Shown in pieces: positions 4,030 through 60,503 of a DNA stretch of 64,000 nt. The position numbers and the translations under genes are program-made. Each line of letters starts with the position of its first letter. The stretch's first letter is position 1. Location: the NCBI RefSeq assembly GCF_964194025.1, contig NC_134471.1:81468001-81532000 (forward strand), in the 5' to 3' direction. The notes under the pieces were generated by a model. It was not told the origin of the DNA, did no database searches, and worked only from the letters and a program-made list of their open reading frames with translations. This DNA is from Convolutriloba macropyga (lineage: Eukaryota).

Positions 4030-6480
4030 CTGTATGAGCTCTATTTGATAAAACTTTTTGCAAGAAACTAGCTTATTTCATCCTAAATAATTAATCAAGA
4101 GTAAGTATTTCATATTGTAACTTTACTTCATGATATGAGTCATATTTTCTGTTGAAGCAGGAGTTTATTGCCCAGTTTAGCTATTTCTCAAGTGAAAATA
4201 GAAGAGAACGCTTAATGCCACTCAAAAAGACTGTACTATAGTGCAAACGACTAACAACTAGTGCATTCATATTCTTGCATACGCCCCGAAAGAGCTCTTG
4301 ATTGCATAACTTGCTCTTATTCAATAAGCCATTCTTCGCAAAACATTTTTTAGTTATTCTTGGGATTTCGAATTTTTGTCCAGAACTTAGTATATCACTT
4401 AACTTTATTTCACTGCTAGTATTTCACTGAACATTGTTAACTTTTCACCACTAAAATTTATAGAACAGGTGTTGCTTCAACAATTTTTTAGACCTTTCGC
4501 AGATTACATGGAAGTCTGGTTTTGATCTGTTCAATTTTAGACTATTTCTGTCAAAGTAGAAGGTCAAATTTTCCAAAGAATCCTCAAATATTCTAAATCA
4601 TTGACGAAAAAATTGAACACTAAGGGTCCGAGCACAGTTCCTTGCGCGGCACCCCGGTAAAGATCAATTCAGTCAGATTCACCAAAACTTTCTGTAGTCG
4701 TAGTTGAGTAAATGCTGGTATGAATTGGGGTGCGCTCCTTTAAAAACCCAATGAGTATAGCTTCTGGTAACGTACATCAAGTTTGATTGATTCGAAAGCT
4801 TTAGATAGATCCAGCAAAGCAGTTGAGACAAACTCATTGATAGCAATTTTGCAGCGTACAGTCTCTGTAAAAAAAAAGAGCGTCTAGTGTTTAAAAAGAG
4901 CTCTTGAAATGAAAGTGCCTGGGTGATAGACTTCTGATTTTGTTCAAAGGTGAATTCATTTGGCTTTAAACACGCATCTAAAAAACTTAGAAGAGCGCGC
5001 TTGTAACAGATATTGGTTTGTAAATTTCTGGATTGTCTGGTTCTTCTTTTTTTAGAATGAGAGAACGAAATGCTTTTCAAAATTCTAATGGAAAAGTATT
5101 TCGGTCAATCCATTGATTAAACAGCATAGTGAGATGTGGTACTAAGAATTTTGCGCCATCTTTTAGTGCCCAGGCTGGAATTGTTGAAAGGCGAAGCTTT
5201 TAATTCGGATTGAGCGATCAAACAACACTATACACTTACTGCACAGAAACAAATCTAAAGGACAACTTTCTCTTTTTCTAGAAGACCTTTTCATAATTCT
5301 TCAAAAGCGATTTTTCTATTTCTTTTGAGAAGAGTAGTCACCAAATTTCGAATACTGGTAGTTGAAGAGATTTGCTATTACCCTAACATTTTTAACATAA
5401 ACAACAGGAGTTCTTAAATTTCTCGCTAGCCCCATTTCTTTCATTTTGTTTCTGTTTCCGTTAATGATTTTCAATTTTTTTGTTTTGTTTTTCTTATCAA
5501 CTCCGCATTAACAATTTCTGATAGGAAAAATAACTTAGGATTCTCTCTCCGCATATAAAAAAATTTTGGTGGGGCGCAACCAATAATGGCTTGGTATGTT
5601 TCCAACAATTTCTTAAAACATAAAAACTGGATAATCGGAATTGTAGAACGTTTGCCTGAATAATTGTAAAAGACAGTAAGAAAAAATTGTTTGAGAATAT
5701 TTTGCCTTATCAATTTTAATTTTTGACCGGTTTACGTTTTTCTTCTTTTGTTTCAGCCAGTATAAGAAGTGTAGCAAAATGATCTGCTCTAAGGCCTAAT
5801 TCTAAGATATGATATTGCGCGCGCTCTAGGCTTGAACGATCAGCAATTATATAACCAATAAGAGTGTAACCAAATTTTGAAGTTGATGTTAGCTTGTTGC
5901 AAGACTCTAAGTGGTATGGCTTCAAAATTGTATCTAACGACTCTCTTTTTTTCATTAAGATAGTCAATATAAAAGGGCTACTGAACTCTTTCTGTGTATT
6001 ATACACTAGTCGAACAATGAGGATGTTTTTCGAAGAGGTCTTGCATTTAACCCAGATGTTTCCCGATTCAACTCTTTTAGAAACGTAACGTCTCCGCCTT
6101 TTTAATTTGCTTGTCATTTTTTACTTCGCGATCTGCAGTGAAACAGTTAAATGATCCGGAATCAATTTCGCACAGATGGTGGTTATCTTTCATTGTCAAT
6201 CAGGTCTCACTAAGCCCGTAGATAGTACTTGGCCCAGTGTCCAATATTATTTGCTTTAATGCGTTGCGTTTCTTAACTATACTGCGACACTTAAGGAAAA
6301 ATTAAATGTTCTTTGGAACTGAATTAATTAGACTTTTGATTTCTTCCATGTATGTCTCCGGGCTTGGGTTGTTCTCAATATCCTTGGAGTTTTATGTGAT
6401 TTCTTATTGTCCATGCTGATAATATTACTTTTTGGGAATATTCAAAATAGGACCAAATAAAAAACCTATCATGAAAAGGA
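4030..6480 (-). mobile_element. Decayed APE-type LINE (CR1/L2-like) in an intron
   Basis: Minus-strand RT motif QGTVLGP at about 4622-4645, FLD...KxF-like text near 4980 and LDxxKASPFNNSSL near 5200. Many stops and frameshifts; boundaries approximate. Confidence 0.65.
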
Positions 6481-14189: not shown

Positions 14190-15141
14190 GCGAAAAACGC
14201 GGAGAGCCGTACGCCGACACTATAAGCTACATCCGGGCCCTCCCAGCACTACGTCTTCATAAAGCATTTCGCATAGTTTAAATCTATCAATATAATGATA
14301 TATACAACCATCAGATGAGGAAGTATACCAAAGACAGACAGCATTAGAAAACAAACAAATAATGAACAAAGTAGATGAGTCAAACTAACAGCCTCCCTTC
14401 TTCAACCACAGCTCACATCGAGGCATCTACAATTTCGCGCCGCCTAAGTGTCCTTGACCCACGAATGCAGAGGATAGAACTCCGCTTAAGAGCAAAGCTT
14501 GTTTTTGTCCTTAGATACGATATGATATCAGCATAGCTGTCCTCTTCGCGCAGAGAGCTTTGATGCCAGTTGTTTCCGCGCTTTTGAAAAAGATGGGCCA
14601 GCTCCACCAGTGCATGGGAAGACAAGCGGACAAAACGTTGCTTTCTCAACCTCAGTTATTCTTTGTTTATATTTGTTCTTTTTAATAGATTCATGGTACT
14701 TGTAGGCTTCGCTACTGCTTTAAAGGCAACTTTTTGCCAGGGGGTCGAAAAATTTCACATCAAAATAGGTTTTGTTCAACCTCGATTCCCAAAGCCCATT
14801 GGCCTTGATATCTAATCTTGCATCATCATTTGTCGTTGATTTAATCCCCTTGCAACGGCTGAAGATGAGGTTCGATCTCGACATCATGACAGACATCACA
14901 TAACAAGTTCGCAAAGGAATCGCGGAGTTCATTATGTCTCATGTGCGTGTATCCTCCTTTCGGACAGAGGAGGGCATGTGACACAGTGAAGTTTTCCTTG
15001 CATGCGCATAGTGATGAAATCTTCACTGGGTCCCAGGCATAGCCAAGGTTAAAGCCATCATGAAACTCGCTTTTCCTTAGGTCGAAAAGATAACGCTTCA
15101 ATGGCAAAGCGTTCAACCAGCTTGATGCTCCCTTTTCACTA
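14190..15141 (-). mobile_element. CRE-like non-LTR retrotransposon, 3' part (zinc knuckle plus restriction-like endonuclease), decayed
   Basis: WLNALP, CACKENFTVSHALLCPKGG, RHNELRD, EPHLQPL, ARLDIKANGLW...FDVK and SFALKRSSILCIRGSR are the CCHC/RH/PD-(D/E)xK motifs of RLE-encoding CRE-type elements. Confidence 0.85.
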
Positions 15142-15416
15142 TGTAATAACCGTGCTTTGTGTACGGTTACATTTTCGGTTGGGGGTTTTCTTGAGCACTT
15201 TAAACTTCGGGATTACCGATAGCATTCTCTAAGTCTGAGACTTTAATTTAAATATGAAGAAGTAATTATTCAAACGGTTTAAGGCAGAGTTAGGGTTATT
15301 GATTGGAAATAAAAGAAGTTTCAAAAGTTGAGAAGATGTAGAGCTATTTAGAGAAGGGCAGCTCAATTATATGAGGTTTAGTTTCGCATATGGAATTTGG
15401 TTTCGGTCCTACTGAT
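15142..15416 (-). mobile_element. Antisense solo LTR, 3' half (split by Gypsy copy 1)
   Basis: Reverse complement of the LTR 3' end (...aacccccaacc...gcacggttattaCA). Left TSD ACTA at 15138-15141. Confidence 0.9.
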
Positions 15417-15589
15417 TATAGTGAACCATAATGTATGACATGCTCATAAATTACATATTAAGCGCATAATTTGTAATTTATGAGCATGTCATACATTATG
15501 ATACATTATGGTTCACCTTACACAATCGAGCTGCCTCTCTTTAATTGCTTTACATCTCTCATCTTCACAAATCTTCTAATATTTACATC

Positions 15590-16293
15590 TCGTACAGCAA
15601 CCAGGAGAAAAACTGACTGATTTTTTGGGAGATTTAAAGCAGTTGGCTTTGAAAGCTTACCCAACGGAGTCGCAAGACATTAGAGACCATCTCGTTCTGA
15701 GAGGATTTCTAGAAGGAATCAACCATAGTCAGGTGAGGTTAGATCTCAGAAAGCAAATTGGCGATAAGGATATGAACATTGAAACAGTTTTGGAAAGAGC
15801 ATTGCATCTGGAAGCTGTAACAAGAATAGAGGAGGAAGAGCAAACACCAAAAGTTGCGGTAATTAGACGAGATGAAACAAAAGATTTAGTGGAGGCCGTC
15901 ACCAAGCTTTTGAACCAATTGTCAGTAGATGACAAACAGCGAGAAAACCGTCGAAACCAATCTAGGGAGCGAAGTGGTTCCCGGGGACGGTGGGGTGACG
16001 ACAGACGTGACAGAGGACAGCAACAAGATCGTGGGTTTAACGATCGGCGGCGATTTCCAACGCCAGGACCTAGTCACCGAGACAGATCTGTTGGAAGAGA
16101 GGAACCGTCTAGGAGGAACGACAGGCAGGGTTTCAAGTGCAGAGCCTGTGGACAAGAAGGACACCTTTCGAGGAATTGTCGAAATTGTTTCCTATGTGGA
16201 ATTTCCCAACACTTGAAAAGAAACTGCCCTTTTAAAAAGAAAACCACCGAGAACTGCAATGTCATTAGAGTTTGTTCGACAAACACAATTTAA
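15590..16293 (+). pseudogene. gag: Gag, 5'-truncated (two CCHC knuckles)
   Basis: CRACGQEGHLSRNC and CFLCGISQHLKRNC. The TAA at 16291 is AAA in copy 2 and pol continues in the same frame, so the ancestor had a single gag-pol ORF. Confidence 0.88.
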
Positions 16294-19200
16294 TGTCTAA
16301 ACGCAGAAATCATACTTCATGGGAACAGATGCGTTGGATTAATAGACAGTGGAAGTAGTATATCGCTTTTGAGCTGGTCCACATACGAAAAACTGGGAAA
16401 ACCGGGAATTGTACAAACATACACAAAACGAGTGTTAACAGCCAATAACTCAGCTGTCAAAATATTAGGCAGAGTAACGCTTTTGGTACAGATGCAACCA
16501 AGACTACCGGAGGTCGAACAAGAGTTTGTGATAACGGCAGACGGAGGTATAAAATGTCTGCTGGGAATTGATTTCCAGAAAACCAATAAATGCGTATTGA
16601 ACTTACACGAAGAGAAACTATATAGCAGTCACTTTAAAGTTTCAATACCACTCACCACAGAGAAAACGCAAGGTGTTCAAGTTTTTGCAATTGCGGGACA
16701 AAACACTTATATACAGAGTAAAAACGAAAATCTAATCAAAATTAGATTAGCTGATGAAAACGGAGAAGAAATTCCGGGAGTGGAAGGATTAGTGGAAGCA
16801 ATTGGAGATTTTGAACTAAAGACTGGTTTGCTTTTAGCCGCCTGTATGATATCAATGGAAGATGGTTGGAGTTTGATAAAAGTGTTAAATCTAACGGACG
16901 CACCAGTAACCGTGTATAAAAACACTAAAGTGGGAACTTACTTTGAAAACAAACAGAACTTAGTTGTGAATGGAACTTTCACAAATCAAAATAAGCCAAA
17001 AACATTAGAAACTTTTCAAATGGGAAAACACGCAAACTTGGAAGGTTCTAAACTAAATGACCAGCAGAAAGAAAAAGTACAGGAATTGTTCACGAGACAT
17101 CAACAAGTCTTCTCACGAAACTCAAATGACTTAGGATATTGTGACAAAATTAAACACCAGATTAAACTCAACAAAGATGCACAGCCGTTCAGAAGAAGTT
17201 ATTGCAGTATGAGTTTTGACAAAAGAAAAGCAATGAAAAAAATTGTCGAAGATCTAGAGGATGCAAAATTAATTGAACCAACCCATTCGTATTGGGCAGC
17301 ACCATCAATATTGGTGAAGAAGAAAGATGGTAGCTACAGACTAGTTGTAGATTACAGAGGTTTGAATAAACAAATCGAGAAAACCAGTTGGCCGCTACCA
17401 AGAATAAATGACGTTATTGATTCTCTAGATGGAAATTGTTACTTTTCCAATATCGATTTGACATCGGGATATTTTCAAATGGCACTCGATGAAGAGTCAC
17501 AGAACGTGACAGCCTTTGTAACTCCAATGGGACTCTACAAATGGAAGAGACTACCCATGGGTTTGGCGTCAGCGCCAGGAGCTTTTCAAAATTTAATGGA
17601 ATTGATCATGTCGGGACTCTCCTACGAGGTGGCTCTAGTATACCTGGATGACATAATCATCTTCGGTAGATCCTTTGAGGAGCATCTCAACCGCCTAGAT
17701 CTCGTACTTGGGCGACTTAAAGACGCTGGATTGAAAATAAAAGGCTCAAAATGCAGGTTTTTTCAGGAAAAAATTCATTTCCTGGGACACATTGTATCAA
17801 ATAAAGGCGTAGAAGTGGATCCGGAGAAAGTAGCGGCAGTCAGTAAAATGAAAAGCCCACGAACAATAAAAGCATTGAGAGCTATATTAGGACTAGTAGG
17901 CTTTTACAGAAGATTCATACAAGATTTCGGAAAAATAGCAGAGCCGCTTTATAAGCTATTAAACAAAAAAGAACGTTTTACTTGGAGCAAGGAATGCGAA
18001 TCAGCAGTTGAACAACTAAAACAAGCTTTACAGAAAGCACCGATTTTGGGTTATCCGAATGACACGGATCCCTATACGTTAAACACCGACGCCTCTTTGT
18101 TTGGAATTGGCGCAATTATTTCCCAAAGACAACAATGGGGTGAAAGAGTTATTGCATACGCAAGCAAAACGCTCAGCAAAAGTCAACGAAACTATTCTGC
18201 GACAAAACGAGAACTTTTTGCATTAGTTTATTTTACTCAACACTTCAGAAATTATCTTCTTGGACAAAAATTTTTAATTGTTACTGACCCTAGGGCCCTC
18301 ACGTGGTTATATAGTTTTAAGGAACCAGACGGATTATTGGCCCGGTGGATAGAAAAGCTCGGACAGTTTGACTTTGAAATCAAACACGAAGCGGGAAAAA
18401 AGATCCCTCACGCGGACTGTCTGTCGAGAGTTCCACAGACTGAAAACCAAGTCGAAGACTGCAATCAAGTGAACCAAATAAATACGGAAGAAAAAAATAT
18501 CTGGTCCATTGGACTAGGGAAATCTGTTTAACAACTAGTTGAACATCAGAAAAATGCAGCCGACCTCATTATACTGAGAAACTGGAATGAGAACGGGAAA
18601 CGCCCTCAAAGAAAACACATGGCAGGAGCCTCTAGGGCACTGTGGAAACGTTGGACTGATTTCAGAAACTTACGGATTGAAAATGATCTAATCAAGAGAC
18701 AGAAACATATTGACGAAATTAATAACTTAACACAAATAGTCATTCAGAGATCACTTTTAAAAGAAATTCTACCTTTCCTTCATGAACATTGCGGACACTT
18801 TGGTATGGCCAAGACATTTGATCGGGTTCGAGAACGATTCTACTGGCCCGGGATGAAAAAAGATGTCCATGAGTGGGTAAGTTCTTGCGAAGAATGCTGT
18901 CAAAAGAAATCTCCACACCAGAAACACATACACAGTCTGACAACGTGGAAACCAAGTCATCCGTTCTGGCAAGTTGCCTTAGACATTATGGGACCTTTAC
19001 CAGAGTCCAGCGGAAACAAATACATTCTGTTAATTGGAGATCAATTTACAAAATGGTATGAAGCAATTCCCATGAGCAACCAAGAAGCTTCAACGGTCGC
19101 CTTTGTAAATGTATGGGTTTCAAGGTTTGGTTGTCCGGCAAATCTTCATAGCGACAAGGGCAGTAATTTTATGTCGAATCTTTTCAAGAACATGTGTAAA

Positions 19201-20325
19201 GAGCTGGGAATTAACAGGACTTCAACAACAGCTTATCACCCTCAAGGAAACGCAATGATAGAGCGCACCAATCGCACAATCGAAGAGAGTCTTGCAAAAT
19301 ACGTGGGTGAACATCACAACACCTGGAGCGACTACCTTCCGCTAGTAATGATGGCGTACAGATCATCAATTCACTCTGTTACGAAGTACAGCTCCCTTTA
19401 CCTCCTTTTTGGACGATCATGCGCGCTGCCGATTGATAGCATGTATCAAACAATACAAACCAAAATCTACCCAACTTTGAGTGATTATGTTGGTTGCTTG
19501 AAAGATGAACTACAAACGTGCCATGAGCTGGTACGGGAAAGCATGGATGTGGAGCAACAAAGACAAAAAACCTACTATGACCGTAGCACATTTGGACCAC
19601 AATATGAAGTAGGTGATTTAGTAATGGTGTTCAACCCCACAATAAAAACTGGCCAGACAAAGAAATTTAAATCCTTTTACAGCGGACCGCAGGTAATACG
19701 TGAAATAATAAATGATCTGAACTTTGTTATTGAGGATGTGAAAACAAAAAAACAACAAAAGGTCAACTACGATCGACTCAAACGTTTTAACAGTAGAAGT
19801 GCTACCACCGATAAAAAAGAACCTAAGAAGGGAAAGATTGAACCGAAAATAACACAAAACAACCTTACGGAGGACAATGATTTTGTGGAAATTGAAGTGG
19901 TGACCCCAAAACAGAATGACACAGAAAGAAGAGAAGTTCAACCTGAAGGAAATATTAGTCAAATTAATCCTAATACTGAAACTCACAATGAGACAGTCAA
20001 AGACGAATCGTTTCAAACACCTATGGGTGGGAGTACAAGAGAATCAATAAATACTAACACCAATAATAAGAGCAGAAGCACAAAGATACCTGCGCCCAAA
20101 GTAGCCACACAGCAGAAGCGGGATAGTCTGGTGTCAACATCCGAAAGGAGTGAAGGCGAAGAATTTCCAAATAGGAGCACGGCTTCTACTTCGCAAAATG
20201 TCACCGAACGACGATATCAGACAAGAAGTGCGTCGGGAATAACAAGACCACGGAAACTGAAAAACTATTTTTTATTCAAGGATAACGATTCAGATGAAAA
20301 ATTTGATAATGATGTATTTTTTTAA
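16294..20325 (+). pseudogene. pol: Pol (protease, RT, RNase H, integrase) with one in-frame stop
   Basis: LIDSGS protease; LPMGLASAPGAFQ and YLDDII in RT; TDAS and NYSATKRELFA in RNase H; H...GHFG...YWPGM...CEEC; LDIMGP, HSDKG and IERTNRTI (DDE); GPQ (GPY/F). Stop at 18529-18531 is GAA in copy 2. Confidence 0.95.
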
Positions 20326-20341
20326 AAGGTGATACGACAAA

Positions 20342-22398
20342 ATGCAGAGTGCGTGGAACCCACATTGGATCGTGCAGCTGAACTGGAAACTTCTTCAGTT
20401 GGTTAGCATATTAGGTTTTTCACAATCCTTGGAGATTGTGGGGTATGATTTTGGGAACATTCTACAGACGCAGAAATTTGCAATGACGGAACCGACAAAA
20501 TGTGAAACGTCACATATAAATGAGGAGCAGGTAAACAAAGGAGGACTGATCTACGCCAAAAGCAGCATGAGTAAACTAAAATACTGCATGTACAGGGCTG
20601 CATATACGGTAACTGTGCTGAAAAAAAGTATTTGGTATGACGACGCAACTTACTTAAACGAAAAATCACAAATAATTCCAACGTTTTACCCAATGAGTCA
20701 GTCTGTCAAAATCTATGGCAGGGACACAAAACGCGGTTACCGGGTCTCGGTGATTTTGAATTCAATGCTCCCAAAGAAGTCCTCAACGAGATGAATATTG
20801 ACCGAACCGACGCTGAATTTGTTCAGAAGATATCAAAAACTTTCATGAAAGGCGGAAATGAGAAAGGAGTGAATTATGTCTACCCCGTGGATTGGATCAA
20901 TCCAAAAGGTGAAACACAGAAAGGTAACATCATGATAAATGCAGAAATTTTCATGGGGACTTTGTTCATTGAAACTAGGGAAGCAAATGAAGGAACATGG
21001 TTATATTTTAAAGACCCTTTGAAACAGGAGCAGACCTTGTTATATCAAGGAGACACATTTGAAATAGATTCAGTACAATATCTGTTCGACCAAGACAAAA
21101 AACCAAACATCTTAACGATCGTTAAATTTTCAGACTCGATAACAGCAAAACTAGTCCGCGCTGGAAACAAAAATTACTTGACGAGCAAATTAGACAGGAA
21201 AAGAAATTTAGTTGTCCAGTTGAAAAACAAGACAAAACATATAGACAGTTTTCTGCTTTTTGAAACAAACCACAGAAATTTGTTTTATACAACGGAAAAG
21301 TTGAAGGCCACGGAACAAAATTTTTCAACAACAGATATATCTGAGACAGATCTCAGGGACATAAAACTCGATCAACTTTTTGTGTGGGATTTTCGAGGCA
21401 TGTTTGAAAACCTGAAAGAAATAGAGTTATTAAATTGTCACATAGAAAAACTGCACAGAGCTATGATTCTAACGACATCAATTAACGGAAATTCACACCA
21501 AATTTTCTTAAGTCAACAAAAAGCTCTGGGTACACACGCAGAAAGAGCGGGAGGAATACTATATGTCCATAGGTGCGCTAAAGTAATCGTACATGTTGTC
21601 GAAAATCAGTTTTGTACGGAGGAAGTACCAGTTAGGATGTTTTCTGACAACACTTCAGAAGTAATTAGATACATGGACCCCATTTCTAGAGTATTCTATA
21701 GAAATTTCACACTGATTAATTGCAACCCCATGTACCCGAACGCTCTTGAATTGCAGAATGGGTCATGGATAACATATGGGCGAAGGATACAATTAATTGA
21801 AAAACCCAATGTTATGCCTAATTATAGAGTTAACGTCAATTGGTCAACTTCGGCGCCAATGGAAGGGTTTTTCAATGACAAGGACCTGGAACTTAGCAAA
21901 AGGGCCCAAAGGTTAAGGCATTCGAGAAAGACGATAACAGGAAGAGAAGTTTTCCTGGGACAAGGAGATTTATATGAGCATGAGACTCTAGAGTATTTCA
22001 ACAAGGATTTAAATTACAATAATTAGTGGCATGAATTGCTGATTTTTGAATATTTGGGTAATGAAGTGAAACAAATCTGGCCTGTGGCCAGGGAAATAAC
22101 CATCAGTTTAATGACTATTTTTATTGGATCTAAAATCATATTTTGTTTGGTACGCGTGTTTCTTTCAATCGATATGCTACGCAGTGGCACCAATCCTGTA
22201 ATTGCACTGCAACCCATTAACCCAATGGGGGAACTAGGTTATTTTCATTATTTAAAACAACGTAAAAAGGAACAAGAATTGACAAGAAAAAGGACAGTTG
22301 AACGGTGTGATGGTGAAACAAACATCGTTGTTATAAAAGCAAAAAAGGCAAAATCTGTACCAGATATGGCAGAAATTGAAATCGATACATTAGACTAA
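20342..22398 (+). pseudogene. env: Envelope-like glycoprotein resembling chuvirus (Jingchuvirales) class III fusion proteins
   Basis: N-terminal signal-like stretch then IVGYDF; FETNHRNLF; GGILYVHRCAKVIV...CTEEVPV...YMDPISRVF...INCNPMYP; several NxS/T sites; C-terminal hydrophobic segment ITISLMTIFIGSKIIFCLV. Frameshift near 20693 is repaired by copy 2; in-frame TAG at 22024. Confidence 0.75.
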
Positions 22399-22420
22399 TT
22401 TACGTGTATGATATGTAGGA

Positions 22421-23263
22421 ATGGCAGAACCAAAAATTGGTGATTATTGCTATTATCTACCCGAGTTGTTCGAAGTGAGGTCAATAGTCAGGCAACAAGT
22501 GTATCGGATTGTTGGTGTAACCTCAAACAAAAAGTACGTGGTGCCACTGACGCAGCTGCAACCACCCAATATAGTGGATAGAGCCGCAATTAGCGTTGAT
22601 GAGTTAAATGAGATGCAACACAGAATCGAGGAACAACAAAAGAAGATTGACAACAGCGAAATGCTGGGAACAGCCGGGGCTCGGCTCGAAGAGGAGCTCC
22701 GGCAGTTAAAACTTGAAAGTCAAAGATTAGGTGATCAATTGCTGGAGACCCAACGGCAACTTGAATACGCTGGGAATCAGCGGGAGTCCTGCAGAAGGCA
22801 GGTGGAAGCATTGAAGAAAGAGTTGGAGGAGGTTACAAATGTAGCCGAAACAAAAACAAGGGAATGTATCGCTCTGGTGGACGAGCGGGAGTGCTTAGCT
22901 CGGGAGTTGGAGAATGCCGAGATAGACAATAGAAAGCTGAGGGGTAGAGTAAAAACAGAGCAAACCTCAAAGAAGGTCATACAGAGGAGGCTGGAGGCGA
23001 TCAATGCGCAGAGCCCGATCAGTCGACCTCCAAACTTTTATGAACTTCTATTCCTGCCACAGGGGGCCACAACCAGTACTATCCAGAAACATTTCAAAAC
23101 GTTAGCAATGCTTTGTCATCCGGACAAGGGTGGTCGTGAGGACATGTTCAAAATCATTCTTCAAGCAAAGAAAATTATGGAAGACGAGGAGGCCCGTAAT
23201 ATCTATGACAAGTACGGCATTGAAAAAGCACAAGAATATATGAACTCGAAAATGGACATTTGA
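22421..23263 (+). CDS. Coiled-coil plus C-terminal DnaJ (J-domain) protein encoded inside the LTR element
   Basis: Intact 280-aa ORF with NFYELL...ATTSTIQKHFKTLAMLCHPDKGG...FK.I..AK.IMED...RNIYDKYG. It ends about 40 nt before the PPT and has a homologue in copy 2. Confidence 0.92.
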   Translation: MAEPKIGDYCYYLPELFEVRSIVRQQVYRIVGVTSNKKYVVPLTQLQPPNIVDRAAISVDELNEMQHRIEEQQKKIDNSEMLGTAGARLEEELRQLKLESQRLGDQLLETQRQLEYAGNQRESCRRQVEALKKELEEVTNVAETKTRECIALVDERECLARELENAEIDNRKLRGRVKTEQTSKKVIQRRLEAINAQSPISRPPNFYELLFLPQGATTSTIQKHFKTLAMLCHPDKGGREDMFKIILQAKKIMEDEEARNIYDKYGIEKAQEYMNSKMDI

Positions 23264-23317
23264 AACTCTTGCTGTGTGAGTGAGTAGAACACTCACATTT
23301 TTCTAAGAGGGAGGCAG

Positions 23318-23934
23318 TATAGTGAACCATAATGTATGACATGCTCATAAATTACATATTAAGCGCATAATTCGAAATTTTCATAAACAAAAAGGAGAAC
23401 AAAAAGAGATGGTTACTAATAGTAAACCGGATTTTAACAATATAGAGAAAGCATCATAAATAATGATGGGAATCATCATAGAATTTAATCTTGACGGGAA
23501 ACGTCAAGGAATGTTTGTTCATGACGGGATTCGTCAAAGCAGGTAAACCTGTTATCTGTTAGTTTAACTAACAGGGACCCATGCGGTAGAAAATAACTAT
23601 GAGAAAATCCCACGGAGATTAACGAAAATGGGTAAAAATAACCTAAGTTTAATTAACCATTGATAGGACTGAAACCAAAGAACATATTCAAACCTAAACC
23701 TTACACAATCGAGCTGCCTCTCTTTAATTGCTTTACATCTCTCATCTTCACAAATCTTCTAATTTTTACAAGCAATTGATCTAATTTTGTATTAAACTGA
23801 TTGAACTTTTACATTTGCTCCATTAAATTCAAGTCTGAAACTTGGAAAATTTTCCTCAGTAACTCCGAGGTTTAAAGTGCTTAGGAATAACATCCAACCC
23901 AAACCGTAACCGTTGACAGTGCACGGATATTACA
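23318..23934 (+). repeat. 3' LTR of copy 1 (617 bp, TA...CA)
   Basis: Follows the PPT directly; homologous to 49571-50167 and 59186-59807. Confidence 0.93.
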
Positions 23935-24245
23935 TGATGGCTGAATAATCTTAGGTTGTTTTTACCCATTTTCTTTAATCTCTTTGGGATTTTCTCATAG
24001 TCATTTTCTACCGCACGTGTCCCTGTTAAATAAACTAACAGACAACAGATTAACCCGTCAGGAATCCCGTCAATAACAAACATTCCTTGACGTCTCCCGT
24101 CAGGATGAAATTTCGTTATGATTCCCATCATTATCTAAGATGCTTTCTTTATATTGTTAATTGTTCTCCCATTTATTGCGAAAATTTTGAATAGTGCGTT
24201 CAAAATGTATTTTATGTTATACATTAAATTTTATCGATTACTACA
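23935..24245 (-). mobile_element. Antisense solo LTR, 5' half
   Basis: Reverse complement of the LTR 5' half, starting TGTAG at 24245. Right TSD ACTA at 24246-24249. Joins 15416 seamlessly once copy 1 is removed. Confidence 0.9.
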
Positions 24246-25135
24246 ACTAGCTAAGTCAAGTGAGCGAATCTTGTTCTTATTCAATTCGCTCTTAATTCTT
24301 GTCTTCTTTGATTTGATTATAAGCTCTTTCTACTTATTTAATTCATGTTTGATTTGTTTTTGCTTTAGTTCGGCTTCAGGCAGAGATATAAATAGAGGAC
24401 TTGACAATTGAACTGATCGTTCATATTCCTTAAGGCGGTCATCAATTTTATGTTCCGGCCACTCTGCCTTATCGGAAACGAAAGGATATACCTGTATTTT
24501 GGATAGTAGTGGGGATTCTTTAATAGATTAGGTAATAGCCCATTGTTGATTTATTTCTCTCATTCTATTTAAAGGTCTTTAATATTAGGTGTTGTACGTG
24601 CCAAGAAGGTCAGTTTATGCTGAACTGATTAAACGAAAAATTTATAAACATTTTGATGTGAAAGATTGGCATGAGCGGCTAGTTTTCTTAACTACAATTT
24701 CGGCTGTTTTATTGATCTTTCTAAAAAATCTTTATTATCAGAGTCTATTACACTACCAAGTACTCTACATCCGTCAACTATTTCAACGTCATCGTGAACA
24801 AAGATGTTTTTTCAAAAAGATGTTCTATTGTAATGATGTGGCATTTGGTAAGATGGTAACCGAAAGCAGGACCGTGTTTTATCAACGCTTCAAAAAGTTT
24901 TTTCGAGTTATAAAGAGAGCCAACAGCATTGCCATCGTCTGCATAACATTTTTGGACCGTGAATCAATCGTCAAGAAGTTTAATAAAGGGGATAATGGCA
25001 ATTCCATACATCGACATCGCAAATAGGGAATATTGTTTGTTTGTTAATAAACGAACTCTAATCACAGTATGTTTTACATATAGAATGATAGAGAGAACGA
25101 CCTAATTTATTGATGTTTCGTGAAGCAAGATCAGG
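24246..25135 (-). mobile_element. CRE-like non-LTR retrotransposon, RT part (continuation of 14190-15141)
   Basis: Minus strand reads AMSMYGIAIIPFIKLLDD*FTVQKCYADDGNAVGSL...HGPAFGYHLTKC (RT YADD motif near 24935). Confidence 0.82.
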
Positions 25136-44553: not shown

Positions 44554-47500
44554 AATTCCAAATATGAAATAAAAGCACGGTTGGCAACAAATACAAACAA
44601 AACAAGAAGAGTTATTTGTTTGGTTATTCTGTGAAGTGCTGCACGACGAAATTGTTGAAGGCATTCTTTGACCCGGTTCCTGCTTTCTCCTTCAATCTGG
44701 TGAACGATACTTTGTTTCGTACACAGTCTCCTTCGATTTGACTCATCCACGTTTTCCGTTGCCCCCCAGGAGCGCGTCTAGCATGGACGTATTGATCGGG
44801 CGGGTCCCAATCGAAGGCACTGCGGGCTAATCTTCCTGGTTCCATTCTCTGGATGTGTCCGTACCATTTTATCCGTTTGAGCATGATCATCGTGGATAGT
44901 TGGGGCATTCGTGATCTTGACATAATTTCTTCGTTCGTTGTTTTCTCCAGATATGACACTCGTAGAATTCTCCGAAGACAACCACAGTGGAAACTCTCAA
45001 GTTTTCTCTCCATTAATTTCGAAAGAGTCCAAGTCTCTGAGCTGTACAGCACGGCTGATAAAACGAGTGCTTTGTACAAATTGCACTTGAGGTGCACGCT
45101 GAGCTGCTTGCTCTTCCAGAGATTTTGGAAGTTAGCAAACCGTTGTCTACCTTCTGCAAGTTTGCAATTGACTTCCTGCAGGTCTCCATGCTTGAGGCTG
45201 ACATATGATCCGAGATACTTGAACGCTTCTATGTTTTCAAACTCGTTTCCGAGAACATCTTGTACTTTGCAGGAAAACACGCGTGTGGCAACTGCTTTAG
45301 TTTTGCCACAGTATCTCGATTGGTGAACTTTTCGGCCATTGACTGTTTTGAACTTTCTTTCACACTTGTCACAGGTAAGGCTCGCCTCTAGTTGCTCGAA
45401 CTTTGACTTGTCGACGACATTCTTTGACAAACCGGCTTTGCAGAATCTTGTTTGGTGCACTTTGCGTCCGGTAACTGTACTGAATTGCCGCTGACAATTC
45501 TGACATCTTAAAGACTCTTGGTCAGCCACCACTGACCGACTCTCATTTTCTAGCGACTCTGAATCTGCTACCGCAGATTGTTGTTGTGAAGCTACCAACG
45601 CTGGCTTAGCCACCGCTAAGCTTTTCAATCTTAGCTTCCGGCCATCTTGTGTTTCGAACCAGCCCGCTTTCTTTTTCGTTCCCAGCAGCACCTCCGTGCT
45701 GATGGTTAGTCGTGACTGGCTAGATGTCTCTGCCAGGAGTCCTAGTTTGCCTTTATGTGTTCCAGTGAGTTTCTCCACGTTCTGTTGGATACTAGGCACT
45801 GCAACAACACTTGGGCTGTCGCATTTTACGCCCATATTCTTTGTTTTGGCCACATTAATCTTCAGACCAGCGGCTTCCGCAAGGGCCTCGATTTGATGTA
45901 GGTTTTCTTGCACCTCATTGTCTGAGACCCCCACGAGAGCAACATCATCAGCAAAATCTAAGTCAGCCACCAATCTCCCAATGTCTAATCCTCCATGCAC
46001 CGAGTTAGCCAAAATGGAGTTGATGACAAGGCCGAATAGGATTGGGGACCACACATCACCCTGCCTAACGCCCGTTCTGACATCAAATAAGCGTCCTTTC
46101 TCACCTTCGGCTTTGACTCGACATTTGAATCCATCATAGCTGTTTCTTCTGATGTTTATCACTTTTAGCGGAAGACCATAGTGTTTCATTATCTGGTACA
46201 TCTGCTCACGATCGACAGAATCGAATGCCGCTCGAAAGTCTATGAAACAAAAGCTAATATCCAATTGAAACGCCATTGATTTCTCTATTATTTGACGCAG
46301 GGCAAAGAGTTGATCGGCGCATCCTCTGCTTTTTCTGAAGCCGCACTGCTCTTCCCTTAAGACGCGATCCACTGAATCTTTGCATCGATTGAGAATAACG
46401 GAAGCGAACACTTTGCCTGGTACTGACAATAGAGAGATCCCTCGGTGGTTCGAACACTCTGACCTCTTTCCTTTACTCTTGTATAATGGGACAATTTCTG
46501 CTACCTTCCAGTCATCGGGCAGAACTTCCGTCGACCAACACTTATCTATGATGTCCCAGAGCCACTCGACAATACCCTTGTGTGCTTTCAACAACTCACG
46601 GGAAATGTTATCGGGTCCACTTGCCTTGCCATTCTTCAACCTGCGGACAGCTTCAAGCACTTCTTCAAATCGAATTGGGCTCAGGTCAATCGACAAGTTT
46701 TCAGCTGCTTCTTCGGGATCCAATCTCGTACTGCAACTGGATGTTGAGGGATTCAGGAGTTGACTAAAATGTTCCGTCCAGCGTTCAAGTCGTTCCTCTT
46801 TCGTCCGTAAGTTGACGCCAGTGCTTGAAACTAATTTGGTCAACTGGGGACTCCATTTTCGGCAAATCTGCTGTGATGCCCCAAAAACCTCTTTCAAGTT
46901 GCCTCTGTCCGCAAAGCTCTGCACTTCTTGGCCTTTGCGTTCAAGCCATGCCCGTTTGTCTGCACGTAGAGCTTTTCTGACTTCCTTACAGCAGTTTGTG
47001 AACTCTAACAACGCCACCGCGCTGCTGTGTTTCTTCAACTGTAGATCAGCTCGTTTCCGGATAAGTTCCAGAGAATCTGGAGAAATCCAAGGTTTGTTCA
47101 CTCGCTTGTCCGGAAGGAGGCATTTCACTGCTGCTTGGTTCAAGGCTTTTCGAAAATTGTCCCAAGACTGCTCTGTATTCTCGAAATCGCCGCTCTTATC
47201 CAGATCTAACTTGACCTCCTGCGTGAATAAGTCACGCGTTGTTTCATCTTGCAGCTTTGCAGAACTGATTCTGGGCGTGAAACATGGCTTTTTAGACAAA
47301 AGTTTCATAGATACTTCCGCAATGACCATTTCATGATCGGTAATTGTGGTTTTCCCTCTTCTGGTCCTCACATTCATCAGACATCCTCTGTATCTCTCTG
47401 CAAACAGAATGTGATCCAGCATCTTTTTTCGACAACTCGGATCGGGAGGGTTTTAGGTGTACCAATGCACTTGTCGATGCTGGAACCATGTACCACCTAC

Positions 47501-48260
47501 GAGCAATTTGTGTGAAGTGCAAAATGATAACAACTTTTCCGAGTTTTCATTTTCTTCACCCATTCCAAACGGGCCTCTGCAGCTCATGGTGTCATTCAAC
47601 TGGTGTCCAGGCTCTGCATTGAGGTCACCGATGACACAAATACGCTCCCTATGTTTGAAGCTGGAAACTAGGTCTGAAAGTTGACTCCAAAACAAATCCT
47701 TCTCTTGGAGACTAGCTTCATTCGTAGGTGCGTAGCAGACAACAACAGCTAGATTGGCTCTCCTCCGAGCCGCGAACTTGACGTAGCAAATAGGTTCACT
47801 TAGAGCCACTTGTTCTACGATGCTGTTTATCAATGACTTCTTTACAGCAACGCCCACTCCTCCTTGTCTCGACTTTACACCAGACAACCACGAGTCAGAC
47901 AGGTAGAGCTTGTGGTCTCCGAGATCAATTTCTTGCTCCTGCAATCTCGTCTCCTGCGCTCCCAGAATATCCAACTTGTATTGTGCCAGATCCATTTTCA
48001 AAGCCTCTAAAGATCCGGCTTGGGTCAGTGTTCTGACGTTTAAAGTTGCAATTCTGAGTTGGTTCCTCGGGAGATTCTTAGCACCCCTTACCCGGGACTC
48101 GGGGCCATGGTTGAATGTACTCATTGCTTTGGTGTTTGAAGCCTGAGATACGACTAGTTGCGCCACAAACTAGAAGACCAGTGCCTCGTTAGCTCGACCA
48201 TGTGAGCGGAGAGCCGCAGCACATGATCTACCCCCAGGGGACACCACGTGGAGGTGAGGT
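44554..48260 (-). mobile_element. RTE-clade non-LTR retrotransposon, near full length (single APE-RT ORF 48166-44624 with one in-frame stop)
   Basis: APE motifs TLNVRTL, QETR, CYAPT, GDLNA, LDH. RT motifs QCGFR, FIDFRAAFDSV, GVRQG, FADD, FKYLGS, LYSSETW, WYGHIQRM. TAA at 47453-47455 replaces the W of YTW and the frame continues into 47422. Confidence 0.95.
48183..48260 (-). ncRNA. HDV-like self-cleaving ribozyme in the RTE 5' UTR (5' strand of P1 lost in the gap)
   Basis: Minus strand: CCTC (P2), ACC-TCCACGT-GGT (P3/L3), GTCCCCT (P1 3' strand), GG (P1.1), GATCATGTG..GCGG-CTCT-CCGC..CACATGGTC (P4), GCTAAC (J4/2 with catalytic C), GAGG (P2 3' strand). Confidence 0.85.
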
Positions 48261-49570: not shown

Positions 49571-50167
49571 TGTAGTAAACTATAGAACTTAATGTATGAC
49601 AAGCTCATAAAATACAAAGTGAACGCACAATTCGAAATTATCACAATAAAGGAAAAAACAAAAAGAGATGGTTACTAAGAGTAAACCGGATTTTAACAAT
49701 ATAAAAAAGCATCATAAATAATGATGGAATCATCGCGGAATGTCATCTTGACGGGAGACGTCAAGGAATGTTTTTTCTTGACGGGATCCGTCAGGCAGGT
49801 AAACCTGTTATCTGTTAATTTAATTAACAGGGGCCCGTGCGGTAGAAATTCCCGAAGAGATTAAAGAAAATGGGTAAAAATAACCTAAGTTTAATCAACC
49901 ATTGATAGGACCGAAACCAAAGACCATATTCAAAACTAAACCTCATATAATTGAGCTGCCTTTCTCTTATTAGCTTTACAACTTCTCATCTTTAGAAAAT
50001 TTTTGTATTTTCGACCAATAATTCTAACTCTATATTGAACCATTTGAATATTTACAGCTTCATAATTAATTAAAGTCTTATAAGATTTTCATCAGTAAAC
50101 CAGAGGTTTTCAAGTGCTCCTAGAAAAACCCCCAACCCGTAACCGTACACAGTGCACGGATATTACA
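49571..50167 (+). repeat. 5' LTR of copy 2 (TG...CA)
   Basis: TGTAGTAAAC...GGATATTACA. Confidence 0.93.
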
Positions 50168-50168
50168 C

Positions 50169-50180
50169 TGGCGACAGAGA
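50169..50180 (+). promoter_or_regulatory. Primer-binding site (TGGCGACAG)
   Basis: TGG lies 1 nt after the LTR end; repeated at 59809. Priming tRNA not determined. Confidence 0.85.
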
Positions 50181-51188
50181 TTTTTTAAAAAAGTTATTTT
50201 TTTGAAAACTTTAATAAAAATTTCGGTAGGAAGACGCAAATAAAAAGCACTTTAATCCCGAGAATCCGAGAATCGAGTTCATCTCGAGAAAACACAAGAA
50301 TTGGGATAACAAATCACCAATTCCACCAATTTCCACAAAAGTTTGTGGGATTTAGTTGCAGAAGTCAAAACGGAATCAGTCGCAAGTGAGAAATTACTCG
50401 CGTGGGGCTAACTTTTACTCGTTGGTGAAGAGAGAAAATTGCTTGTGTGGAAAGACCGCATCATACCAAGTGAGTACAAATAAAGAGTTTTCTCTAGTTG
50501 TTGTTGTTGGTAATCAAAACTGATCGCCACTGCGTTAGTCTTGTTAGTCTATGAAAATTTTTTTTCTCTTTCGATCATGGTTGCGAAATTGACTTGTAGA
50601 TAACGAGCGACATAACAATCGGAACAAAAAAAACTGCAGCGTAATTGCGTTGTAAAATCAATTAAAGCAATTGCGTTGTTTTGTACTCTGAAAGTTATAT
50701 ATTGACTTTTTCTGAAACTACCATTAATTAAAAAAAAAACAAAAAAGCGAAAAAAGTTGATCAGGTAACAATAAGCAGGAGAAAGTAAAAGAAAATTAAA
50801 GCACCTAATGTCATCCCTGTCGTAATTAGAAAAAACTATATATTTTATTAGCATCAATAAAACAGGAAAAATCGGAATTCAACTAGTATCATATTAAAAT
50901 AATAAAGAGAAATTAGGTGCGACAGTCATCTATAAGACCTAAATTAAAATTTGGTTAAAAATCAAGAAACAAAATAGGTAAAAAGGAAATACCAAACTGA
51001 AATAAGCGTTAGGTTTTGTTAAAAAAAATTTTTAAACCATTAAAAAAAGAGACAATTATAGAAATTCAAAATAAAATTAGAAAACACTTACCAGTGACGA
51101 TCTACTTGGTAATTACTTATAGAAACTATTATTTTCAACAACTAAACAAAGTTTTAAAAGGCCACGATGCAAGAAGGGGAACAGTAAA

Positions 51189-54100
51189 ATGGCAACGGGC
51201 TCGACCTCTAGAATGCTATTATACGAAGCGTTTACCAGTTCAAACGACTTGGAAGGCTACTTGACGCATTTTGAGCTATTAGCAGAACTACAAAAGTGGA
51301 AAAGAACTGAAGGAGATCCGGCCCGCGAAGTTGATGAACGGCCGCATTACTTTGCACTAAGGCTACAAAAATCTGCCATAGAGTTCTATCGCACTCTGCC
51401 GCAAGCTACAAGTGAAAAAAAAATGATGAATGCGTTAAAGCTTTTTGGAGAACACTGTAGAGTAAAAACCGGTCGTTTTCCGGGAACGGCTAGCTCGCAG
51501 CGTACAGCAACCCGGAGAAAAACTGACAGGTTTTCTGGCAGATTTAAAGCAGTTGCTTTGAAAGCTTACCCAACAGAGTCGCAGGACATTAGAGACCATC
51601 TCGTTATGAGTGGATTTCCAGAAATAATCAACCATAGTCAGGTGAGGTTAGATCTCAGAAAGCAAATCGGCGACAAGGATATGAAAATTGAAACAGTTTT
51701 GGAACGAAGCTGCAACAAGAATAGAAGAGGAAGAGCAAACACCAAAGTTGCTGTAATTAGACGGGATGAAACGAAAGACTTAGTGGAGGCCGTCACCAGG
51801 CTTGTGAACCAATTGTCAGTAGATGACAAACAGCGGATGACAAACCAATCTAGGGAGCGAAGCAGTTCCCTGGGACGATGGGGTGACGACAAACGTGAGA
51901 GAGGACAGCAACAAGATCGTGGGTTCAACGATCGGCGGCAATTGCCAACGCCAGGATCTAGTCTTCGAGACAGATCTTTCAGAGGAGATGAACCGTCTAG
52001 GAGGAACGACAGGTGGGGTTCCATGTGCAGAGCCTGTGGACAAGAACGGCACATTTCGAGGTATTGTCGAAATTGATTCCTATGTGGAAGTTCCCAACAC
52101 TTGAAAAGAAACTGCCCTTTTAAAAAGAAAACCACCGAGAATTGTTTTGTCTTTAGAGATTGTTCGACAAACACAATTAAATGTCTAAAGGCAGAAATCA
52201 CACTTCATGGGAACAGATGCGTTGGATTAATAGACAGTGGAAGTATTATATCGCTTTTGAGCTGGTCCATATACAAAAAACTGGGCAAACCGGGAATTGT
52301 GCAAACATACACAAAACGAGTGTTAACAGCCAATAACTCAGCAGTCAAAATAATAGGAAGAGTAACGCTGTTGGTACAGTTGCAAGCAAGACTGCCGGAG
52401 GTTGAACAAGAATATGTGATAACGCAGACGAAGGTATAAAATGTCTGCTGGGACTCGATTTCCTGAAAACCAGCAAATTTGTATTGAACTTACGCGAAGA
52501 GAAGCTATATAGCAGTCACTTTAAAATTTCGATACCGCTTACCACAGAGAAAACGCAAGGTGTTCAGGTTTTTGCAGTTGCGGGACAAAACACTTATATA
52601 CAGAGTAAAAACGAAAACCTTATGACAATTAGATTAGCTGATGAAAACGGAAAAGAAATTCCGGGAGTGGAAGGATTAGTTGAAGCCATTGAAGATTTTT
52701 AACTAAAGACTGGTTTGCTTTCACTCGCCTGTATGATATCAATGAAAGATGATTCGAGCTTGATAAAAGTCATGAGTCTAACGGAGGCACCAGTGACCGT
52801 GTAAAAAAGCACTAAAGTAGGAACTTATTTTGAAAACAAACAGAACTTAGTTGTGAATGGAATTTTACAAATCAAAATAAGCCAAAAACATTGGAAAATT
52901 TTCAAATGGGAATACAAGCAACCTTGGAAGATTCTAATCTACATAACCAGCAGAAAGAGAAAGTACAGGAATTGCTCATGAGACATCAACAAGTTTTCTC
53001 CCGAAACTCGAATGACTTAGGATATTGTGACAGAATTAAACACCAAATTAAACTCAACAAAGATGCACAGCCGTTCAGAAGAAGTTATTGCAGTATGAGC
53101 TTTGATAAAAGAAAAGCAAAAAAAAATTGTCGACGATCTAGAGGATGCAAAATTAATTGTTGAACCAATCCATTCGTATTGGGCAGCACCATCAATTTCG
53201 GTGAAAAAGAAAGATGGCAACTACAGACAAGTTGAAGATTACAGAGGCTTGAACAAACAAATCGAGAAAACCAGTTGGCTGCTACCAAGAATAAATGACG
53301 TTATTGACTCTCCAGACGGAAATTGTTACTTTTCCAATATCTATTTGACATAGGGATTTTTTCAAATGGCGCTGGATGAAGAGTCACAGAACGTTACAGC
53401 TTTTGTAGCCCCAATGGGACTCTACAAGTGGAAGAGACTACCAATGGGTTTGGCGTCAGCGCCAGGACCAAAATTTATTGGAATTGATCATGGCGGGACT
53501 CTCTTATGAAGTGGATTTAGTATTCCTGGATGACAAAATGATCTTCGGTAGATCCATTGAGGAGCATCTCAACCGTCGAGATCTCGTACTTGGACGACTT
53601 AAAGACGCTGGATTGAAAATTAAAGGCTCAAATTGTAGATTTTTTCAGGAAAAAGTTCATTGCTTGGAACACATTGTATCAAATCAAGGCGTAGAAGTGG
53701 ATCCGGAGAAAGTAGCGGCAGTAGGTAAAATGAAAAGTCCACGAACAATAAAAGACTTTGAAGTAATATTCGAACTAGTTGGTTTTTACAGAAGATTCAT
53801 ACAAGATTTTGGAAAAATAGCAGAACCTCTTTATAAGCTATTAAACAAAAAGAACGTTTTTCTTGGAGCAAAGAGTGTGAATCAGCAGTTGACATCTAAA
53901 ACAAGCTTTACAGAAGCACCAATATTGGGTTATCCGAATGACACGGATCCCTATACGTTAACCACAGACGCTTTTCTGTTTGACATTGGCGCAATTATCT
54001 CCAAAGACAACAATGGGGTGAAAGAGTTATTGCATACGCAAGCAAAACGCTCAACAAAAGTCAACAAAACTATTCTGCGACAAAACGAGAACTTTTTGCA

Positions 54101-56212: not shown

Positions 56213-56229
56213 AAAGGTGATACGACAAA

Positions 56230-58270: not shown

Positions 58271-58292
58271 TTTAAATGTATGATAAGTAGGA

Positions 58293-59133
58293 ATGGCAGA
58301 ACCAAAATGGCGGTTTTTGCTACTGTCTACCCGATTTGTTTGGGGTCAGGTCGATAGTCAGGCACCAAGTGTATTGGATTGTTGGAATAACCTCAAATAA
58401 AAGATACTTGGTGCCGTTGACGCAGCTGTAACCACCCAATATAGCAGATAGAGCCGCAATTAAAGTTATGGAGTTAAATGGGATGCATCAGAGAATCAAG
58501 GAACAGCAAAATAAGATTGACAACAGCGAAATCCTGGGAACTGCTGGGGCTCGGCTCGAAGAGGAGCTCCGTCAGTTAAAATTTGAAAGTCAAAGGTTAA
58601 GCGTTCAATTGCTTGAGACCAAACGACTGCTTGAATACGCTGGGAATCAGCGGCAGTCCTGCAGGAGGCAGGTGGAAATATTGAAGAAAGATTTGGCGGA
58701 GGTTACGAATGTAGCCGAAACAAAGACAAGAGAATGTATTGCTCTGGTGGATGAGCGGGAGTGTTTAGCTCGGGAGTTGAAGAATGCCGAGATAGATATC
58801 AGAAAACTAAGGACTAGGGTAAGAACAGAACAGACCTCAAAGAAGGTCATCCAGAGGAGACTGGAGGCGATCAACGCGCAGAGCCCGTTCAGTCGACCTC
58901 CGAACTTTTATGAGCTTCTACTCCTGCCACAGTGGGCCACAACCAGTACTATCCAGAAATATTTCAAAACGGTGGCAATGCTCTGTCATTCGGACAAGCG
59001 TGGTCGGGAGGACCTGTTCAAACTTATTCTTCAGGCAAAGAAAATTATGGACGATGAGGAGGCCCGTAATATTTATGACAAGCACGGGATTGAAAAAGCA
59101 GAGGAATATACGAACTCGAAAATGGACCTTTGA
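58293..59133 (+). pseudogene. Coiled-coil plus J-domain ORF of copy 2 (5' frameshift, HPD changed to HSD)
   Basis: MAEPK start at 58293; ORF 58468-59133 aligns with 22421-23263. Confidence 0.88.
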
Positions 59134-59185
59134 AACTCTTGCTTGTGAGTGAGTGGAACACTCACATTTTCTAAGAGGAAGGCAG

Positions 59186-59807
59186 TGTAGTCAACCATAG
59201 AACTTAATGTATGACATGCTTATAAAATACATAGTGAACGCACAATTCGAAATTTTCACAGTAAATGGTAGAACAAAAAGAGATGGTTACTAAGAGTAAA
59301 CCGGATTTTAACAATATAAAAAAAGCATCTGAATAATAATGGGAATCATTGCGGAAAGTCATCTTGACAGGAGACGTCAAGGAATGTTTGTTCTTGAGGG
59401 GATTCGTCATGCAGGTAAACCTGTTATCTTTTTGTTTAACTAACGGGGACCCGTGCGGTAGAAAATAACTATGAGGAAATCCCAAAGTGATTTAAAAAAA
59501 GGGTAAAACTAACCTAAGATTAATCAACCATGGATAGGGCCGAAACCAAAGACCTTATTCAAAACTAAACCACATATAATTGAGCTGCCTTTCTCTTATT
59601 AGCTTTACACCTTCTCATCTTTTGAAACTTATTGTATTTTGGACCAAAAATTCTAACTCTATATTGAACAGTTTGAATTTTTACAGCTTTATATTTATTT
59701 AGAGTCTTAGACTTAGAAGACCTTCATCAGTAAACTAGAGGTTTTAAAGTGCTTTTAGAAAAACCCCCAACCCAACCCGTAACCGTACACAGTGCACGGA
59801 TATTATA
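59186..59807 (+). repeat. 3' LTR of copy 2, also acting as 5' LTR of a tandem truncated unit
   Basis: Preceded by the PPT and followed by a PBS. Confidence 0.92.

Positions 59808-60465: not shown

Positions 60466-60503
<38 letters not shown>

Follow-up and report, generated by a model that had tools for sequence, protein, structure and literature searches.

A gene encoding a C-terminal J-domain between env and the purine tract of Ty3/gypsy elements in Convolutriloba macropyga

Does a retroelement carry its own J-domain gene, and what might the product of such a gene do? The question is raised by a 64,000-nt stretch of the Convolutriloba macropyga genome (contig NC_134471.1, positions 81,468,001 to 81,532,000), here called the window. 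An earlier note, made from the letters of the window, described an ORF between env and the polypurine tract of an element, with a coiled coil and a C-terminal J-domain. DNA viruses and phages are known to encode J-domain proteins. Searches of the open full-text literature and of the accessible portions of PMC13524379, a recent errantivirus survey, found no description of a retroelement-encoded J-protein.

The J gene and the two element copies in the window

The ORF was confirmed on the forward strand of the first element copy (copy 1), starting 22 nt past the env stop and ending 41 nt short of the purine tract (Table 1). Its product, the J protein, matches Pfam DnaJ at E 7.5e-14 (52 bits, cut-off 27.8), and 44 solved-structure sequences match it with E no higher than 0.01 (42 J-domains, two a coiled coil). 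In the structure model (mean pLDDT 88), four strands in aa 9-42 precede a single long helix and the J-domain, whose predicted helices span aa 206-209, 218-232, 240-254 and 256-265, with HPD between helices II and III. Hydrophobic residues occupy 5-8 of 10 heptad a/d positions in four 35-residue windows of the long helix. The coiled coil and the J-domain described earlier are thus both present, whereas the N-terminal barrel of about 50 residues had been overlooked. No signal peptide or membrane stretch was seen by inspection of the sequence, and no helicase is present in the protein. Pfam and further family searches matched the combination of barrel, coil and J-domain to no named family.

Table 1. 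Features of the two element copies, in window positions (aa, residue of the J protein)
Feature	Position	Strand	Remarks
Rearranged LTR scraps replacing the 5' LTR of copy 1	15417-15587		pieces correspond to LTR positions 1-63 (in both orientations) and 381-453 in a natural full-length copy
Copy 1 gag-pol	15591-20325	+	5' end cut, starting within gag; several breaks; zinc knuckle, RT, RNase H, integrase
Copy 1 env	20342-22398	+	broken over three frames; Monjiviricetes (chuvirus-type) fusion glycoprotein, PF24664 E 5.9e-15
Branch-point-like CTAAT and acceptor-like AG	22395-22418	+	CTAAT overlaps env stop; AG two bases before ATG
Fourth (J) gene	22421-23263	+	280-codon ORF, ATG start, no internal stop; beta-barrel, coiled coil, J-domain
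N-terminal SH3-like beta-barrel, predicted	22430-22570	+	aa ~4-50
Long helix with heptad pattern, predicted coiled coil	22580-23011	+	aa 54-197 in model
J-domain	23033-23209	+	Pfam aa 205-263
HPD codons	23117-23125	+	aa 233-235
Predicted hairpin 5' of purine tract	23274-23298	+	folding without shuffle control
Polypurine tract	23305-23317	+
3' LTR of copy 1	23318-23934	+	617 bp
Copy 2, older	49571-60631	+	5' LTR, leader, broken gag-pol-env, broken J gene, 3' LTR, second leader
Copy 2 J gene, broken	58293-59133	+	frameshift near start, stop, HSD replacing HPD

The pol domains of copy 1 follow the Ty3/gypsy order, in which integrase comes after RT and RNase H. The gene had been described as lying inside the LTRs, but the 5' LTR of copy 1 is not intact and is represented by rearranged scraps only. 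Inverted pieces of a related LTR lie on either side of the copy (23937-24246 and 15141-15411), and this arrangement suggests that copy 1 sits inside a rearranged older LTR. In copy 2 the J gene has the same position and 87-88% DNA identity to that of copy 1, as would fit the report of an ORF in both copies, but its frame is broken. Since the second gene is broken, the two window copies alone do not prove an integral gene, although that claim holds genome-wide. The N runs of the window are clear of both copies. A 44-nt stretch at the predicted hairpin is also retained in a second family described below (77-82% over about 44 nt, family A against family B).

Elsewhere in the window, an intronless SET-domain ORF with 57-nt repeats lies on the reverse strand at 37449-38924 (Pfam SET, E 2.5e-8). 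Beside it on the same strand is a 483-aa ORF (35472-36923) with no Pfam match, which is tyrosine-recombinase-like by eye; the two are possibly another mobile element. A LINE-like element at 44624-48124, also on the reverse strand, has endonuclease-like and RT-like frames by eye, and zinc-finger-like motifs after the RT. No tRNA genes were found in the 64 kb.

Family A in the genome and selection on the J gene

A search of the 1.18-Gb genome with the J gene gave 1972 first-look candidates; all 138 scored candidates (138/138) matched, at 66-100% identity. Copy counts were limited to matches over 700 nt. The structure of this family, family A, was read from 20 of the top 30 matches, each taken with 10 kb of upstream sequence. 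It consists of a 617-bp LTR, a primer site starting with TGG after the 5' LTR, gag-pol of about 1680 codons, env of 686 codons (the frame in unbroken copies), the J gene, a purine tract and the second LTR. A full 617-bp LTR pair was present in 13 of the 20 copies and at least part of one in 17; a 4-bp target duplication was read in six of the 13. The members of the full pairs are 93-99.8% identical and, since this identity reaches 99.8%, family A moved recently. All three frames are fully open in one copy of the 20.

By these sequence features, family A is an env-carrying Ty3/gypsy element. As far as the accessible text of PMC13524379 describes them, the errantiviruses, env-carrying Ty3/gypsy elements of invertebrates, share with it the LTRs, a tRNA-type primer site, the gag-pol-env order, an integrase after RNase H and recent multicopy expansion. 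The present element differs in having an additional gene, the J gene, placed after env and ahead of the purine tract. The main text of PMC13524379 makes no mention of DnaJ, a J-domain, accessory genes or splicing, and seven of its supplements make none of DnaJ or a J domain. The same source, in the parts accessible, recognizes an HSV/gB-type class of env, in which we infer that the PF24664 env belongs.

A search with the leader only, which avoids selection by the J gene, gave 224 candidates, of which 40 were scored. A J match lies 5-15 kb downstream, by coordinates, in 31 of the 40, although neighbouring copies may have been paired at the largest distances and in three double leader hits. The other nine comprise six with a whole J gene, two with a partial one and one without it. 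In this single element a deletion also removed the end of env and part of the LTR. Absence of the ORF from most family members, which the earlier note had named as a refutation, is not what was found: the gene was seen to be wholly missing in one of the 40. Summed contig depth from four runs, a rough check only, was alike over the J gene, pol and env. The J gene is an integral gene of family A; a chance ORF, a single insertion and a neighbouring host gene were each rejected.

Tandem arrays of the env end, the J gene and part of the LTR occur with periods of 1.8-2.7 kb and 91-94% protein identity to the window gene, at loci L015, L017, L018 and L023 (C10 58.95-58.96 Mb), L021 and L029, and L077 and L080. 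At L102 and L103 (C1 51.329-51.335 Mb), two family A J copies have a 3746-codon multi-Tudor host frame (L398-L418) no more than about 10 kb away, a nearness that is probably due to chance.

For the study of selection, variants in 65 distinct family A copies were classed by the number of copies carrying them; those found in a single copy arise mostly after insertion. The single-copy class holds 475 nonsynonymous and 100 synonymous variants (pN/pS 1.27). The ratio is 0.88 for variants in two copies and 0.56 for those in three to five, and variants in six or more copies (26 nonsynonymous, 56 synonymous) give 0.12, with zero stops. Choosing copies by likeness to the J protein or to a DnaJ model biases the sets against damaged copies and lowers all ratios, but the contrast between variant classes survives it; the drop from single-copy to shared variants has a Fisher p of 2e-20. 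Among shared variants the ratio is 0.06 for the barrel, 0.15 for the coil and 0.11 for the J-domain. When the genes of the same 20-22 copies are compared, the shared-variant ratios are 0.08 for gag, 0.02 for RT-RH, 0.13 for integrase, 0.34 for env and 0.17 for the J gene, which thus falls between integrase and env. The same test was not significant within family B (p 0.12) and gave a modest signal within family C (p 0.026).

The J gene is therefore under purifying selection in family A. Decay of individual copies is common, since HPD is retained in 52 of the 65 copies and lost in 13, and a stop or frameshift is present in 33 and absent from 32. Such losses would fit a captured host gene fragment that travels as a passenger without function. 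However, the decay consists of private post-insertion changes, while shared changes have been purged, and the element J-domains form a clade of their own apart from host J-domains (see below), which makes a passenger scarcely credible. A ratio near 1 with random loss of HPD, which had been named earlier as speaking against a functional gene, describes the private variants only.

Related families, the J-domain tree and expression signals

Two more families in this genome carry the gene. Family B was found by a DnaJ search and family C by a barrel profile. The J proteins of the three families are 27-31% identical; family B against family A shows about 52% identity in gag-pol, 30% in env and 27% in the J gene. 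Family B has the same gene order as family A in 13 of 15 contexts. Of 14 family C contexts, 13 have env 5' of the J gene, and seven have the gag-pol of that family there too. The integrases of A, B and C form one clade with support 100/99 in a 12-row tree drawn entirely from this genome, and it seems from these sequences that the J gene marks one clade of gypsy elements here. Between env and the J gene, family B has several repeats of 39 nt (L076:585-790), every one containing a short inverted repeat and a misplaced ATG, and a mini-element at L078:256-2284 consists of LTR, primer site, J gene, purine tract and LTR, gag-pol-env having been deleted at the repeats.

A library search gave seven further barrel-coil-J proteins at about 25-36% identity; these are known as proteins only, and a retroelement context was seen for A, B and C alone. 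Four of the seven were searched in this genome without a close match, their best scored matches being element copies (mostly 25-45%, at most 51% over short pieces); therefore, these four come from elsewhere. Across the ten families HPD is present in 10/10, with H, P and D each invariant, and mean identity is 39% for the barrel, 43% for the J-domain and 18% for the coil, whose length ranges from 86 to 168 residues. This count omits three sequences of the first alignment, namely P0248 (HSD, 141 aa) and the J-less fragments P0178 and P0281. A metagenome scan gave 80 loci that match at the level of the J-domain only (best E 4e-13), and a viral sequence scan gave one weak locus.

In a tree of 77 J-domains over 75 columns, the 11 element-type J-domains form one clade (95/88) that stands apart from the 13 host J-domains; one further long-branched fragment falls inside it. 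Nine library hits without an intact HPD, or consisting of the barrel or N-terminal part only, were left out. Such a phylogeny had been proposed as a way to find the donor; it yields a separate element clade, but the clade sits on an open fork and no donor is placed.

How could a fourth gene be expressed? The motif GTGAGTA is present in the leader of all three families, against a chance expectation of 0.03-0.07 per leader, and acceptor-like AGs lie ahead of env and ahead of the J gene in A, B and C. The AG before the J start codon is found in 66 of 69 family A copies, and the same arrangement of branch point and AG in 18 of 19 family C copies, there without overlap with the env stop. As read from the sequences, the J-gene AG keeps one phase with respect to the J frame across A, B and C, and in A and B its codon position also agrees. 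Of 27 family B copies counted, 26 have their closest upstream AUG in another frame. Conservation among copies is alike at the leader donor and around it (0.971 vs 0.963). No GT..AG skip from leader to J gene is among the 15 joints listed of 203 in four contig runs, which has no bearing on splicing, nor has the continuation of 40/40 scored leader hits past the donor, since that search favours unspliced copies. Overall, these motifs make it probable that the J gene is translated from a spliced subgenomic mRNA using the leader donor.

The barrel and the possible function of the J protein

As a general rule, J-domains with HPD stimulate Hsp70. By this rule, the J protein very likely stimulates Hsp70 through its HPD, and recruitment of Hsp70 is likely because a J-domain gene under selection keeps this motif. 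That the J-like domain is no longer active on Hsp70, the protein being kept in another role such as a structural coiled-coil scaffold, would suit its divergence (a score of 52 bits, where the best host J-domains reach 74-101), but H, P and D are invariant in all ten families though the coil is so variable, and this reading is very unlikely. Class C J-domain proteins combine a J-domain with a client-specific module. The J protein resembles them in having an HPD J-domain and a separate targeting domain, and differs in being encoded by an element and in its unnamed layout. A conserved barrel on a variable spacer together with a J-domain is the layout of a client-targeting co-chaperone.

Folded alone, the first 50 residues, which hold the barrel, give pLDDT 84-95 over aa 1-50. 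Tudor, PWWP, KOW and SH3 folds are tied at Z 6-7.6; the top matches include the Tudor domains of SMN (Z 7.2, rmsd 1.7 over 50 residues), TDRD3, TDRD1 and Krimper and a PWWP domain. Ties of this kind in a predicted model indicate a shared fold but say nothing of function. Against gypsy integrase C-terminal domains, the barrel profile gave E 0.003 with a score of 18.3, above 100/100 column shuffles (maximum 13.95), but with an HH probability of 10%. The family B barrel touches Pfam Integrase_p58_C at E 0.18, while the window barrel has no Pfam match at E 10, and thus none to Tudor. A search of 11,903 six-frame segments with the barrel profile did not recover integrase domains. It appears almost an even chance that the barrel derives from the SH3-like C-terminal domain of integrase, which is a lead rather than a result because the direct profile search missed those domains and the HH probability is low.

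The reading ranked first, still a tentative one, is that the J protein uses its barrel to bring Hsp70 to integrase-DNA or particle complexes of the element itself. The J-domain with HPD would recruit host Hsp70, the barrel would direct it to these complexes, and the coil, given the two-fold range of its length, may be a spacer or may drive oligomerisation. Hsp70 might then remodel the nucleoprotein complex of the element or take it apart, much as the Mu transpososome is handled by ClpX; by this analogy such an outcome is conceivable, if somewhat less than evenly probable. These complexes are ranked first because the only sequence signal points to integrase and because removal of a DDE enzyme by a chaperone has a precedent in MuA and ClpX (PMC5357137, accessible portions). 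The two cases share the idea of a DDE enzyme that remains bound to its product and has to be removed by a chaperone, but MuA is recognised by the host chaperone with no J adaptor supplied by the element, and the analogy is functional only. Against the reading stand the weak likeness to integrase and the tied fold matches, with Z under 8. In addition, sister gypsy families have no J gene in the stretches searched (0 of 30 and 0 of 14 loci); therefore, any help with integration is no general need. A full-text search found no paper on chaperones in intasome disassembly. The complete scheme, in which an old clade of invertebrate endogenous retroviruses fused a copy of its integrase C-terminal domain to a captured J-domain, expresses the product from a spliced mRNA in the manner of complex retroviruses and has Hsp70 dismantle the integrase complex after integration, is rather improbable; if true, it would offer a handle on the disassembly of such complexes in eukaryotes.

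The Tudor and PWWP matches could also point to counter-defence, the main rival and the reading ranked second, in which a Tudor/PWWP-like barrel would dock on Piwi/Argonaute or chromatin silencing complexes and the J-domain would divert Hsp70, so that small-RNA loading is blocked or the complex is stripped. A host J-protein couples an Argonaute to Hsp70 for loading, according to the available text of PMC11194074. Aromatic residues of the barrel are conserved at aa 11, 12, 17 and 28, the host has many Tudor genes (28 matches), and other env-bearing families hold different 3' ORFs, one of them RING-like, which suggests a slot for host-directed accessories. However, the barrel profile does not resemble host Tudor domains, its E of 0.34 lying in the range of the shuffles. 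The D-Y/F-G motif of the host Tudor alignment, part of the methyl-arginine cage of Tudor domains, is absent from the barrel. Moreover, the barrel is conserved much like the J-domain, which is unusual for an arms-race surface, and counter-defence is on balance unlikely, though worth keeping in mind.

Alternatively, the J protein may help folding or assembly by raising local Hsp70 activity on Gag-Pol, capsids or Env's cytosolic tail; its barrel would then bind RNA or Gag and not integrase. RNA is a frequent ligand of SH3-like and KOW barrels, the present barrel carries a slight positive charge (+2 to +3), and the J gene adjoins env in all three families with the same kind of splice-like signals. 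On the other hand, a protein without a signal peptide or membrane stretch would stay outside the ER lumen, the site of Env ectodomain folding, and other families of the same env class lack the J gene; such a helper, ranked third, is an unlikely explanation. Whichever the client, its identity would show which step of a retroelement needs chaperone power: removal of the integration complex, particle handling or escape from small RNAs.

Other virus-encoded J-domains, namely those of the baculovirus J-domain protein BJDP, phages and giant viruses, dominate the viral fold search. BJDP (rank 35, E 8e-3) also has a coiled coil. However, these matches cover 49-120 columns of the 280-residue model, none spans the whole of barrel, coil and J-domain, and they belong to large DNA viruses. 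The T antigen of polyomaviruses was drawn on earlier as a parallel: its J-domain works on Hsp70 and, as far as the accessible part of PMC5982132 goes, shares with family A the hexapeptide HPDKGG and the tie to a targeting module. Yet that J-domain is N-terminal, in the helicase protein of a DNA virus, whereas the J-domain of the element is C-terminal. Relatives of the element read HPDAGG or HPDQGG, HPDxGG occurs in 47 of 52 HPD-bearing lower-ranked library hits (chosen for likeness to the query), and no polyomavirus is among the 50 viral fold matches listed; the J-domain tree contained no polyomavirus sequence. Polyomavirus origin was rejected, and the parallel holds as analogy only.

Capture of 3' genes by LTR retrotransposons is documented in bdelloids, where, in the portions of PMC5408684 available, non-env genes such as a GDSL esterase and a DEDDy exonuclease are likewise 3'. 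Those ORFs are alternative ORF3 types, whereas the J gene, for a co-chaperone, was added after env. A selected accessory gene found in several families shows that invertebrate endogenous retroviruses can reach the organisation of complex retroviruses. In other env-bearing gypsy families of this genome, the J-gene and barrel profiles found no match in 30 loci (within 1.5 kb of the env match) or in 14 loci of 7 kb. Several of these families carry unrelated 3' ORFs, so that the earlier statement of gag-pol-env as the usual maximum fails in this host, and an accessory slot after env seems, from the sequences, to be common here.

These other families are varied. No post-env ORF is present in most loci of the families at L452-L458. 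Two env families (L422-L451) have unrelated ORFs of about 284 aa (Ser/Thr/Gln-rich) and 449 aa, 150-380 nt past the env match. At L459-L461, about 4870-6310, an env that is weakly baculovirus F-like (E 0.004) is followed by one or two ORFs of 135-185 aa. A further gypsy family has two post-env ORFs; the first is RING-finger-like (L464:5062-5496 and L465:5093-5590; Pfam E 0.002-0.008, below the cut-off), and the second is over 310 aa long with no family match.
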